Of a DNA stretch of 8,809 nucleotides, positions 1 to 3,000 are shown one piece after another; position 1 is the first letter of the stretch, and each line of letters starts with the position of its first letter. The position numbers were made by a program. The stretch is from Candidatus Anstonellales archaeon (GTDB taxonomy: Archaea; Micrarchaeota; Micrarchaeia; Anstonellales; J096): positions 1-8,809 of the forward strand of contig JAVYLQ010000021.1 in assembly GCA_038740615.1 (NCBI GenBank), written 5' to 3'.

Positions 1-3000
1 TTTGTAGAGGATCGCCCAGTAACTGTTGATAGATTGATACTATATGGGGAGTACGAACTCAGAAATCTGAGTTATTTTGATGGATATGTTACTAGAGAGT
101 TCTGGGGTGTGGCAATATACAATAATTTGGTCAGAAATTTCAATTTCACTTTAAGAAATGATTCATCGTTCCATATAACCTTCTCTAAAATCAAATACTA
201 CTTATCCACTCTGGATGACTCAAGAAGACCTATAAGATGTAATGCTCTTCTGAATAATGAAATGTTCACAATAGATGGTCCTACCGAAATAGAGAGTTTT
301 GATTCTGTTATGAGAGGTTATGTTAATTGTTCTGGAAAGATCAGAGATGTAGTTCTGACCGAATCGAACAATCGTAAAGAATTTATATTTGATATAACCC
401 CACCAGAGATATCTGATTTTAGAGTCGAAAGTTTTACTACAAATGATGTGCTACTAGCTGTAACCATATATGACCCTAATCAGTTTGCAAGTGGTCTCGA
501 TAGAGTTATATTCTACAGAGATGGTCAACAGATCTCGCCTGAAAGAGTATCAGGATCATATTACTATAGAATCCCTAATCAGGATGCTAATCTGAAAATA
601 GTAGCTATAGATAAGGAGGGAAATATAAGAGAATTAGAAGCACAATTCAAGCAAATCAGAGAGTCTAAGCAGGATAGATCCATTCCTACAGATACGGGAA
701 ATAAAGAGGATCCTATAAGTTGGTTTATACTAATAATTGGTATAGTGGTTTTAGGCGGTATAGTTTTGTATATATATAATATGTATAAAAGCGTTAGAGA
801 GGAATAAATTTTTAAATACTTATTGATAAATAATAATTAGGTGATATTATGGCTAGAAAACCTATGTTTAAGACAAAATATAATCTGAATGACCAAAGAA
901 TATACGAGATTATTCAGAGATTTGAGAACGAAAATTACATAGGGACTGTTAATAAGCTAGAGGAACTGGTTCAGGAATATGAAGAGGAGAGAAGGATGTA
1001 TCAAGACTACTCAAGAGATGAGCTATACACTGTAAATGATGCTTATAAATATCTGAGAGCTAATGGAATAGATTGGGAGTATAATATATTTAAAGGTAGA
1101 TTGGATAGAGGATCTATTCCAGTCATTATCGGAGATGATGGTAATAAGTACATCCTAAAATCTGTATTGGATAATATCATAGACTTTCATAATGAAGTAT
1201 ATAGCTTACACGAGGCTTATGAGAAAATCAGAAAGGTAAATCCAAGATTGACACTAAGAGCATTTATAGGTAGAATTGAAAAGGAAAAGTTACCTGTGAT
1301 TATCGTTTATAGAAAGAGATTCTTGCCTAAGCAGCTGATAGATGATCTAGTTTATATATACTCAAATTACGTTGAAGTATCGCACGCCCTTAGTATATAC
1401 AGAGAGAACGGATTGAATATCAGTAGAAATACTCTGGAGAGAAGATTAGATAGAGGGATATTACCATTCATAAAATTGGGTAAGAAAAGATTGATTCCTA
1501 AGGATGTATTGATGAAATCTATAGAAGAGGAGAGAAGGTTAAAATTTAACCTCTAGTTCTCTCTCAATTTCTTCTAATATGTTTTTAAATCCACTCTCAT
1601 CCAATCCTGTTATTGAAATTTGGTATTGATGTATCAGAGGATGTATTTCAATATAGGTCGCTCCAACATTATCCCTCCTATTTAACCTGTCTATGATTAG
1701 CTCTAATATTGCTGTATCGTAGGATTCTAGAACCAAATCTATTTTCTTATCCCGAATCTCTTTAGAGATCAGCTTAAAATACTCCATGTTTTCTAATTCT
1801 CAAGAATATTTTTAAAAATCGATATGATAAACTTAAATTGGAGAAGGGGATGTGGGGTAACCTGGTTAGCCTGCGACCCTAGGGAGGTCGAGATCCCGGT
1901 TCAAATCCGGGCATCCCCATCTTTCAAGGATTGTTCTGCTCTGGGACCGACTACAAAGTCATTATACGGAGAATTGATATTCTTCAACAATACTATTAGA
2001 GAGTTTGGATCCTCATTGTGGAATCTGTAGAATTTGAGTTTACTCTCTAGCCTCCTAGCAAAATCTCGTACCTCATCATGATTAGCAACATTCTCGTAAC
2101 TCAATCTCTTCCTACTCTGACCAAGGAATGAATATGACTTTATCTCTATATAATCTGCCTCCACATTATTTAGTATATCTGCAAACTCTTGTACAGAAAC
2201 ATCATCATCGTTGATACCTCGCATAAGAGTTATCCTTATAACTCTTCTACAATTTAGATCTTTTAGCATATTTAGAGTTCTCATTAACCTTTCCCATCCG
2301 TCTTGATATACTGATCTGATTATTCTCTTAAACATCTGGGGATTGGGCGTGGAGAAACTGATATAGAGTTGTGTGGGTAAAGCATCCATCTCCTTGAGTT
2401 TCCAGATCTTCTCAGGTTCCTGACCGTTGCTAACCACAAATATACTTCTAGTTTCCGGACGTTTTCTTAGTTCTAGTATTAGCTCCCCTAGCCTTGGATA
2501 GATAGTTGGCTCACCAGACAGAGATATTGCCCAGTGTGAAGGCCAGAGTTCATAAGCTTCTCTGAACATTCTCTTATTTACCTTATCATTACCACCAAAA
2601 CCTACCAACAGTTTCTTTCTCTGTTCTACCACTCCATTGATTATATCTACAGGATCATCCACTTCACTATCGTCCATAGTCACTCTTGAATACCATTCCA
2701 TAGGTCTCCAGCAGAATACACATGCCTCATGGCACCATGCAGTGGCAGGAGACATCTCTGCACATCTATGCGTATCTATTCCGTAGAATTTTCTCTTGTA
2801 GCATGCAGGACCATTCTTTAGATTGGTCTTAGTCCAACTACATATGTGCACAGCAGAATGATTACCTACTATCCCATATATCTTACTCCATTTATCCCTC
2901 TGTTTATCATTAAATGTAATCTTTCCATTATTATAAGCTTCTTGAAGCCTATTTTTCAAAGCTTCGTTGTTTATATTTATCTTAGCCATATAATAATATA

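Follow-up and report, generated by a model that had tools for sequence, protein, structure and literature searches.

A conserved tRNA-Pro gene with adenosine at wobble position 34 in a small-genome archaeon

The window analyzed here, 8,809 nucleotides in length, is the entire contig C21 of a Candidatus Anstonellales archaeon (genome G000), and window and contig coordinates are the same. It carries a tRNA-Pro(AGG) gene flanked by two protein-coding genes (Table 1). ARAGORN called the tRNA without an intron, and its sequence matched the Rfam tRNA family over the full length of the model (positions 1–71) with 58.8 bits (E = 5.1e-11), the gathering threshold of RF00005 being 29 bits. The Taw1-like gene is convergent with the tRNA and, with its final 19 nt, runs over the 3' end of the tRNA on the opposite strand. 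The other neighbors, Topo VI-B and FtsZ, are ordinary archaeal chromosomal genes. An A/T-rich stretch upstream of the tRNA is a possible archaeal promoter; comparable ones occupy roughly −25 to −40 in the related genomes G004, G005 and G002, and none is obvious in G001. As the genome has a G+C content of 35%, such a stretch could arise by chance, and it was discounted as promoter evidence. The host is a tiny archaeon of hot springs.

Table 1. Features at the tRNA-Pro(AGG) locus and their coordinates in the window
Feature	Position	Strand	Basis
HTH_17-domain protein, upstream neighbor, synteny marker of the locus	849..1556	+	Pfam PF12728
A/T-rich TATA-like stretch, 28–39 nt upstream of the tRNA	1807..1818	+	Upstream sequence
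tRNA-Pro(AGG) gene, 74 nt, CCA not encoded	1846..1919	+	ARAGORN; RF00005
Anticodon arm, stem CGACC/GGUCG, loop C-U-A-G-G-G-A	1874..1890	+	Sequence
Anticodon AGG, A34 at 1881	1881..1883	+	ARAGORN, anticodon from gene position 36
Taw1-like radical-SAM wyosine enzyme, downstream convergent neighbor	1901..2989	-	Pfam Radical_SAM + Wyosine_form

The initial annotation had described the gene as a canonical 74-nt tRNA-Pro with an AGG anticodon, and both the searches and the cloverleaf agree with that description. The anticodon arm comprises a stem of 5 bp (1874–1878 paired with 1886–1890) and a loop of 7 nt (1879–1885). When 11 distinct AGG tRNAs were compared, compensatory changes were found at 11 of the 17 stem pairs, and the T-A-G-G-G element (U33, A34, G35, G36, G37) was invariant. 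The identity set of prolyl-tRNA synthetase (ProRS) consists of A73, G1:C72, G35 and G36. The tRNA has A73 and the pairs G1:C72 to G4:C69, an archaeal-type ProRS gene was found in G000, and charging by this enzyme is predicted. We conclude that the gene encodes a genuine, conserved A34 tRNA-Pro of an archaeon.

The AGG gene stands at the orthologous locus in five of the six genomes of the genus (G000, G004, G005, G001 and G002), which between them have two stem variants. In the sixth, G003, only a tRNA-Pro(UGG) was seen. Since the G003 contig ends exactly at the AGG site, 23 nt past the upstream HTH marker gene, the count of five is a lower bound. Neither BLAST nor a pattern search found a tRNA-Pro(GGG) in the six genomes, which are 77–88% complete; a GGG tRNA or a deaminase may sit in the unassembled parts. 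On all three points, namely presence in five of six species, differing stems and no GGG gene in the genus, the initial annotation had it right. It had also stated that sister genera have tRNA-Pro(GGG) and had found the identical TAGGG anticodon arm in no other genome of the order; the first statement has to be corrected, and the AGG gene itself extends beyond the genus. A GGG gene occurs in only one of the six other genera of the family (g4, 3/3 genomes); in genera g2 and g3 only UGG and CGG were seen, in g5 and g7 only UGG, and g6 yielded no typed Pro tRNA. With AGG and GGG both unseen in five of the six other family genera, a Pro set of two tRNAs or fewer may be enough.

Outside the genus, the order has one further AGG gene, found in G170, and our class sample of 401 genomes contained seven more in four additional genera. 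In total, 13 genomes of the class, spread over six genera and five families, bear an AGG gene. tRNA-Pro(GGG) was found in none of these 13, four of which are 91–94% complete. Where GGG tRNAs do occur, their anticodon loop reads U-U-G-G-G-G-U (33 genomes by pattern; 21 genes checked with ARAGORN). They have U38, and the AGG tRNAs carry A38, or C38 in G210. In the genus, a pattern search for class-I tRNAs (those other than the class-II Leu and Ser tRNAs) found A34 only for Pro. No other in-register A34 arm appeared across the 401-genome sample among the 150 matches listed out of 174, with stem pairing judged by eye. The large groups in that listing came from tRNA-Ile(UAU) shifted by one base relative to the pattern and from a conserved 3' half preceded by variable sequence.

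The flanking genes were followed across species. In G004, G005, G001 and G002, the gene immediately upstream of the AGG tRNA is an orthologue of the HTH_17 gene; the orthologue in G152, from a sister genus, lies upstream of a tRNA-Pro(CGG). The HTH protein is just 42–58% identical between species, yet A34 is retained. The Taw1-like orthologue is downstream of the AGG gene in G004 and G005, and downstream of a tRNA-Pro(UGG) in G003 and G152. The G003 UGG gene therefore has the downstream flank of the AGG locus, and a loss of the AGG gene by recombination in G003 is one possible reading. However, G152 shows the same gene order, which, being shared with a sister genus, is probably ancestral, and the AGG site of G003 falls beyond the contig end. 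The other flank has a weak homologue, with no tRNA next to it.

A comparison with the other Pro tRNAs points to where the gene came from. In G000, G004 and G005, the AGG gene is identical to the UGG gene of the same genome at 68 of 74 positions, and every difference lies in the anticodon arm. The six differences in G000 fall at 1876, 1877, 1879, 1881, 1887 and 1888; two stem pairs differ from UGG on both sides, with pairing kept. In G002 (73/74 identical) and in G236 (72/73), the AGG and UGG genes differ solely at nucleotide 34, while in G385 the AGG gene matches its own CGG gene at 71 of 73 positions. The best GGG tRNA of relatives matches the AGG genes of the genus at 56–60 of 74 positions. 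Because the AGG genes of the genus resemble their own UGG genes and not the GGG tRNAs of relatives, these sequences suggest either an origin from a paralogue or gene conversion sparing nucleotide 34. A paralogue origin does not apply in every lineage, as the AGG tRNAs of G170, G210 and G403/G418 are no closer to their own UGG or CGG tRNAs than to GGG tRNAs. In our proposed scheme, the AGG gene of the genus would have arisen from its own UGG/CGG paralogues, or recombination would keep them alike, with nucleotide 34 as the sole position always kept different.

Next, we considered the gene within the tRNA set of its genome. G000 has 32 tRNAs, of which Pro(AGG) is the sole A34 tRNA. G34 is kept for Thr, Ala, Val, Gly, Leu(GAG) (encoded on C6, with no AAG gene) and Ser(GGA), in accord with the earlier statement that the other four-codon boxes seen retain it; no tRNA for the Arg CGN box was seen among the 32. 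Our recount of Pro codons in a crude ORF set gave CCT 2549, CCC 503, CCA 2127 and CCG 332, close to the counts first reported (CCU 2700, CCC 523, CCA 2246, CCG 343). CCU is the commonest Pro codon (46%). Three candidate causes of the switch to A34 were tried and rejected. Codon bias cannot be the sole cause, as the preference of U over C is 0.84 for Pro and about equal or stronger for Ala (0.83), Val (0.88) and Gly (0.88), which retain G34. Loss of Trm5, the m1G37 enzyme, as a reason against a GGGG run fails because a Trm5-family domain (PF02475) is present in 19/19 genomes of the family. Finally, an Elp3-type U34 modification creating a need for a CCY reader showed no clean correlation: the Elp3-like Radical_SAM_C domain occurs in 14/19 family genomes, including 6/6 of the genus; G151, G152 and G154, where UGG and CGG are the only Pro tRNAs seen, have it as well.

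Whether A34 could be deaminated was addressed by searching for deaminases. The domain PF00383 was found in 0/6 genomes of the genus and in 7/13 other genomes of the family, and PF14437 was above cut-off in 0/5 genus genomes. The report of no nucleoside deaminase domain is upheld by these searches. The initial annotation had cautioned that a deaminase could hide among unannotated genes or in the unassembled part; the zinc motif H/C-[AVS]-E...[PS]-C-x-x-C was not found in six-frame translations of G000. Among other AGG lineages, PF00383 was present in 1/5, that one being a RibD, and the 91–94% complete genomes G210, G236 and G403 lacked it. Overall, a cytidine-deaminase-fold domain was missing in nine of the ten AGG-bearing genomes tested, and the tenth has only the RibD. 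Since no TadA/ADAT-type deaminase was found in the assembled genomes, A34 most likely stays unmodified.

Our best explanation, which we consider probable as a whole, is that the tRNA-Pro(AGG) gene is a functional and presumably expressed chromosomal gene with a genomically encoded wobble adenosine that is left unmodified, and that it is linked to its paralogues as described above. The tRNA would fill the place of the tRNA-Pro(GGG) of other archaea, giving a Pro set of AGG and UGG, with or without CGG. Bare A34 would form a Watson-Crick pair with CCU and, because the first two positions of CCN codons form G:C pairs, would probably read CCC too. UGG and CGG would serve CCA and CCG. Its expression, its charging by ProRS, the lack of modification at A34 and its codon range are deductions here.

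The gene could instead be an assembly or binning artifact, or a pseudogene, but we find this hardly credible. The tRNA body repeats that of the UGG gene, public contigs break there, and the G003 contig ends there. Against this, the same gene with its flanks was recovered from the separate assemblies of five species, the cloverleaf is unbroken and shows compensatory changes, and its neighbors (Topo VI-B, FtsZ, Taw1-like) are ordinary archaeal chromosomal genes. Moreover, in the DNA of run X6 the A-bearing contig stands at a depth of 7.8 beside the T-bearing paralogue at 7.7. A more serious alternative, although still a rather doubtful one, is that AGG is an almost neutral extra copy that the cell could do without: UGG would read all four CCN codons, as it apparently has to in relatives with UGG and CGG alone, and the wobble base would drift between G and A, any purine being sufficient in the strong CCN box. 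Relatives with only UGG and CGG (g2, g3) or only UGG (g5, g7) are consistent with dispensability, AGG arose several times in the class, and in published work an A34 tRNA decoded CCU and CCC to a similar extent within the Pro box (PMC11066159). However, A34 is kept at the orthologous locus though flanking proteins have diverged to 42–58% identity. In G002 and G236, where nucleotide 34 alone separates the AGG gene from the UGG gene, conversion without selection would erase the difference, and genomes of ~0.55 Mb would seldom be expected to retain useless genes.

It is also conceivable, but unlikely, that A34 is deaminated to inosine by an unrecognizable, unassembled or host-supplied enzyme, the tRNA then reading CCU, CCC and CCA as in eukaryotes. 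The mutual exclusion of A34 and G34 (GGG in 0/13) is the pattern of I34 systems (PMC8879553, PMC8007984), a similar archaeal case has been compared with eukaryotic decoding (PMC3239211), and the incompleteness of the genus genomes leaves room for such an enzyme. The deaminase searches argue against it, in the more complete genomes G210, G236 and G403 as well as in the genus and in the zinc-motif scan of G000. The tRNA-Arg of G210 keeps GCG next to the AGG gene, and with UGG retained throughout, CCA does not require an I34 reader. RNA-library data weakly favor the same conclusion. The only RNA-library contig, 222 nt from library X18 and covering 1861–2075, has A and not G at 1881. As it continues for 156 nt beyond the 3' end of the tRNA, it does not represent the mature molecule; it may come from a precursor, from the antisense 3' end of the Taw1-like mRNA, or from DNA carry-over. 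Parts of the window are present in one metatranscriptome run, as contigs that cannot show strand, ends or level and so prove neither expression nor editing state. Because the genomes are 77–88% complete and many of their genes have no family, we leave a slim chance that inosine is made by a deaminase whose fold has so far no known link to wobble editing of tRNA. If so, Archaea would have their first I34 system, and eukaryote-like decoding would have been invented independently.

Archaea are still said in recent reviews to have no A34 tRNA genes (PMC11066159, PMC8007984, PMC8879553). Nevertheless, a tRNA-Pro(AGG) without a G34 partner was described in ARMAN-4 and ARMAN-5, together with a tRNA-Leu(AAG), and likened to eukaryotic decoding (Fujishima et al. 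2011, NAR 39:9695, PMC3239211). Those organisms are likewise ultrasmall archaea with the A34 tRNA-Pro present and the G34 tRNA-Pro absent, although they have Leu(AAG) where G000 keeps Leu(GAG). In that paper the case occupies one paragraph, without a deaminase search, conservation, origin or distribution. The novelty implied by the initial annotation is therefore lower than thought, although the gene itself is genuine and conserved: this kind of tRNA-Pro has been known since 2011 and overlooked, and the present gene is a further case of it. Beyond that paper, none of the literature matches listed linked A34 or an archaeal tRNA-Pro(AGG) to DPANN, Nanoarchaeota, Woesearchaeota, Pacearchaeota or Parvarchaeota.

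Other known systems resemble the present one in part. In eukaryotes, A34 is likewise encoded in tRNA-Pro(AGG), which becomes IGG, the G34 isoacceptor is absent, and the Pro set has three tRNAs; however, eukaryotes have ADAT2/ADAT3 and eight affected boxes, whereas here no ADAT/TadA-type domain was detected in nine of the ten AGG-bearing genomes tested and only the Pro box is affected. In E. coli, an unmodified orthogonal tRNA(AGG) derived from M. jannaschii is reported to read CCU about as well as CCC, with all four Pro codons detectable and inosine not found (Schmitt et al. 2024, PMC11066159), and a Salmonella proL mutant behaved in the same way (Chen 2002, as cited in PMC11066159). The anticodon and the near-equal reading of CCU and CCC are those proposed for our tRNA, but the bacterial tRNAs are engineered or mutant and ours is a natural, conserved archaeal gene. 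Among bacteria with reduced or unusual genomes, natural unmodified A34 tRNAs are described in Mollicutes without TadA (PMC3711424), and extra A34 tRNAs in Firmicutes and Leuconostocaceae (PMC8007984). These share small A+T-rich genomes, A34 without a deaminase and four-codon boxes with our case, and differ in domain and in amino acid (Arg, Thr, Leu).

The rule that archaea lack A34 is thus not absolute: the exception is real and conserved across a deep genus, and A34 tRNA-Pro is found in six or more genera of a single small-genome archaeal class, without a recognizable deaminase. Pipelines for annotation and codon-adaptation models used on archaeal metagenome-assembled genomes should not count ANN anticodons as errors. 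The gene pairs of G002 and G236, differing only at nucleotide 34, cleanly illustrate how selection maintains a single base in the face of gene conversion. Should A34 prove to be unmodified, these archaea would be natural cases of a behavior shown only with engineered tRNAs, bare A34 replacing G34 in the strong CCN box, and would be relevant to the long-standing question of what otherwise keeps A34 from being used.

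The A34 tRNA-Pro(AGG) gene proposed in the initial annotation was confirmed by ARAGORN and by a full-length match to the Rfam tRNA model (see table), as well as by its anticodon loop. Read from the sequence, the gene has an acceptor stem of 7 bp, an anticodon stem of 5 bp (CGACC/GGUCG) and the loop C-U-A-G-G-G-A, which places A34 at window base 1881. The T-loop is GUUCAAAUC, the discriminator is A73 and CCA is not encoded. The genome with the window (G000) comprises 541,905 bases on 31 contigs, with about 35% G+C and a completeness rating of 83%; one contig, C21, is the window in full. 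The neighbours of the tRNA are ordinary archaeal chromosomal genes; the window is neither a mobile element nor a virus. The 19 stop-proximal nucleotides (1901-1919) of the Taw1-like reading frame run into the 3′ end of the tRNA gene, which is on the opposite strand. Such an overlap is also present in G003, another genome of the genus (locus L004).

Features of the window around tRNA-Pro(AGG)
Feature	Position	Strand	Remarks
HTH protein gene	849-1556	+	neighbour of tRNA-Pro(AGG)
tRNA-Pro(AGG)	1846-1919	+	ARAGORN; Rfam tRNA model full length, 58.8 bits (gathering score 29)
Taw1-like radical-SAM wyosine enzyme gene	1901-2989	-	neighbour of tRNA-Pro(AGG)
tRNA-Val(GAC)	8638-8711		ARAGORN
Topoisomerase VI subunit B			further neighbour
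FtsZ			further neighbour
M42 peptidase			further neighbour

With introns allowed, ARAGORN called 32 tRNAs in G000, of which tRNA-Pro(AGG) alone has A34. As initially described, G34 is kept in the remaining four-codon boxes that were seen: Thr GGU, Ala GGC, Val GAC, Gly GCC, Leu GAG and Ser GGA. tRNA-Pro(UGG) lies on contig C12, and neither tRNA-Pro(CGG) nor tRNA-Pro(GGG) was seen among the 32, a set that is incomplete and lacks many tRNAs (Asp, His, Phe and all Arg but UCU). Five of the calls (Tyr, Cys, Trp, Leu-CAA and Met; contigs C1, C4, C5, C16 and C25) include an intron, 14-22 nt long, as is typical of archaea.

A BLAST search with the tRNA, followed by ARAGORN, identified AGG in five of the six genomes of genus JAADEL01 (G000, G004, G005, G001 and G002), in agreement with the initial count. 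G001 has CGG besides AGG, and G003 has UGG only. As claimed, tRNA-Pro(GGG) was found in none of the six genomes, either by this route or in a pattern scan for R34. In each of the five AGG-bearing genomes, the gene immediately upstream of AGG is an HTH orthologue; thus, the locus is orthologous across the genus. Identity of the HTH protein to that of G000 is 98% in G004, 58% in G005, 42% in G001 and 48% in G002. A34 has been retained while the flanking protein diverged to this extent. In G003, the contig ends 23 nt past the HTH orthologue (C28:24-713, minus strand), while in G000 the tRNA stands about 290 nt beyond the HTH gene. In G003, the assembly therefore breaks exactly where AGG would lie, so that this genome does not count as a demonstrated absence. 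In G152, from a sister genus, tRNA-Pro(CGG) follows the HTH orthologue and tRNA-Pro(UGG) precedes the Taw1-like gene; tRNA-Pro(UGG) likewise precedes the Taw1-like gene in G003. Pro tRNA genes have thus swapped flanks in the course of the history of the genus, as would fit recombination between near-identical genes.

Two versions of the AGG gene exist in the genus. In G000, G004 and G005, it is identical to the genome's own UGG gene at 68 of 74 positions, and all six differences fall in the anticodon arm. Four of them sit in two stem pairs, altered at both partners with pairing intact, and the remainder are C32 versus U32 and A34 versus U34. In G001 and G002, the AGG gene has a UGG-type anticodon arm; in G002, nucleotide 34 is the sole difference from UGG (73/74). 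The rest of the tRNA body varies between species in step in AGG and UGG (e.g., the D-loop of G000 versus G005), which by sequence comparison is the signature of concerted evolution. On two counts, the genus AGG gene does not resemble a G34-to-A mutant of a GGG gene. The R34 scan found tRNA-Pro(GGG) in 33 of the 176 genomes of the order (18 of this set, plus 3 more, were confirmed with ARAGORN), always of a uniform type with loop U-U-G-G-G-G-U, that is, U32 and U38, whereas AGG tRNAs have A38 (C38 in G210), like UGG and CGG tRNAs. In addition, the genus AGG genes match the best GGG tRNA at 56-60 of 74 positions, compared with 68-73 for their own UGG. In this genus, the AGG gene thus has the look of a UGG/CGG paralogue, whether by descent or through conversion.

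Among the 19 genomes of the family, GGG occurs only in genus g4 (3/3 genomes), with UGG and/or CGG, or nothing, elsewhere; the initial attribution of GGG to sister genera holds for g4 and fails for the remaining genera. Nor is AGG confined to the genus within the order, since one further AGG gene, with a body of its own, was found in G170 (family f10), whose sister G171 has UGG and CGG only. Among 401 genomes sampled from the phylum, all belonging to a single class, ARAGORN confirmed AGG in seven more (G210, G236, G237, G339, G385, G403 and G418), bringing the total to 13 genomes, six genera and five families. Outside the genus, AGG genomes carry AGG, UGG and CGG (AGG and CGG in G339); no tRNA-Pro(GGG) was found in any of the 13 genomes, four of which are 91-94% complete. 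AGG differs from UGG at nucleotide 34 alone in G236 (72/73) and is identical to CGG at 71 of 73 positions in G385. The AGG bodies of G170, G210 and G403/G418 are equally distant from the paralogues in the same genome and from GGG tRNAs, and these genes may descend from GGG genes. Across the 11 distinct AGG tRNAs aligned, the cloverleaf is kept; of its 17 predicted pairs, 11 show changes on both sides, and U33-A34-G35-G36-G37 is invariant. Arg keeps G34 in G210, as tRNA-Arg(GCG) adjoins the AGG gene there. No class-I A34 tRNA other than Pro was found in the genus by pattern scan, nor among the matches listed for the 401 genomes (150 of 174, read by eye).

The searches also returned related sequences. 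Among the matches listed, a near-identical arm in about 50 genomes of families f13 and f14 is that of tRNA-Ile(UAU), one base out of the scan register (e.g., G176:C2:73325-73359, G214:C1:60720-60754, G405:C11:177716-177750); Fujishima 2011 (PMC3239211) describes the same unusual AUA-decoding choice in ARMAN. In many genomes (e.g., G132:C3:138991-139026, G284:C11:168641-168676), a conserved 3′ half (TTAGAAATC...GGTC plus T-arm) follows a variable 5′ flank; it is probably the second exon of a tRNA with an intron rather than an A34 tRNA. In genus g5, tRNA-Pro BLAST matches end at position 60-67 of 74 (loci L053, L057 and L058 of G160, G159 and G158), with no ARAGORN gene at two loci and an odd 3′ end at the third; possible causes are an intron in the T-loop and divergence of the 3′ half. 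G156 has T-arm-like stretches with a CTAGGG motif and no ARAGORN tRNA (1501-1530 of loci L113, on C7, and L122, on C12); one lies 12 nt downstream of tRNA-Gly(GCC) and the other about 70 nt beyond tRNA-Gly(UCC). In sequencing run X5, three contigs of depth about 180 match the window from 1878 (1878-1919), with A at 1881, G>C at 1887 and another 5′ half. They seem to represent another, far more abundant hot-spring organism with its own AGG-type tRNA-Pro.

Next, we considered whether A34 is edited. PF00383 (cytidine-deaminase fold) was found in none of the six genus genomes, and PF14437 was over cut-off in none of the five with AGG, while control genomes matched in both searches; the zinc-type motif H/C-[AVS]-E...[PS]-C-x-x-C occurred in no reading frame of G000. 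Of the 13 remaining genomes of the family, 7 contain PF00383, all of them without AGG. Among the five other AGG lineages, the domain occurs in G170 alone, where the protein is RibD with a RibD_C domain. These results make a TadA/ADAT-type enzyme in AGG-bearing genomes very unlikely, subject to genome incompleteness. Overall, the initial interpretation stands as to the A34 gene, its conservation in the genus, the lack of GGG there and the lack of a deaminase domain, but not as to GGG in sister genera beyond g4 or the restriction to the genus. The window sequence occurs mostly in hot-spring metagenomes of several studies, and a small part in one metatranscriptome. A 222-nt RNA-library contig covers 1861-2075, extending 156 nt past the tRNA, with zero differences, and hence reads A at 1881; it may be precursor, antisense Taw1-like mRNA or DNA. 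In DNA run X6, the A-bearing contig and the T-bearing contig (UGG paralogue) are equally deep, at 7.8 and 7.7.

CCU accounts for 2549 (46%) and CCC for 503 (9%) of the 5511 Pro codons of G000. For E. coli, Schmitt et al. 2024 (PMC11066159) report that unmodified tRNA(AGG) reads CCU and CCC about equally, with all four Pro codons detectable, and that its Sanger-sequenced cDNA held no inosine; they cite the same behaviour for a Salmonella mutant (Chen 2002) and ascribe the broad reading to the two G:C pairs of the CCN box. Based on these data and on codon use in G000, we propose that bare A34 would form a Watson-Crick pair with CCU and read CCC through relaxed decoding of the third position in the strong CCN box, with UGG and CGG tRNAs serving CCA and CCG. 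We infer that tRNA-Pro(AGG) is expressed and charged, and likewise its modification state and the codons that it reads. Tolerance of A34 in the Pro box could explain why the change affects Pro. This explanation is incomplete, because the Ala, Val and Gly boxes of G000 have a U bias equal to that of Pro, yet keep G34, and Ala and Gly are described as also permissive for A34 (PMC11066159). ProRS is present; a Trm5-family enzyme occurs in 19/19 and an Elp3-like enzyme in 14/19 family genomes, neither correlating with AGG.

Reviews describe archaea as having neither ANN anticodons nor A34 deaminases (PMC8007984, PMC8879553, PMC11066159). However, Fujishima et al. 2011 (PMC3239211) described tRNA-Pro(AGG) in ARMAN-4/-5, with no G34 counterpart; apart from this paper, none of the literature entries listed concerned A34 in the archaeal lineages at issue. 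An A34 tRNA-Pro in archaea is thus already known, though little noticed. New here are the orthology of the AGG locus, kept across a deep genus, and the occurrence of AGG genes in six genera. New too are the lack of deaminase domains, the relationship to paralogues in which nucleotide 34 is spared, and the uniform U32/U38 of GGG tRNAs as opposed to the A38 of AGG tRNAs.
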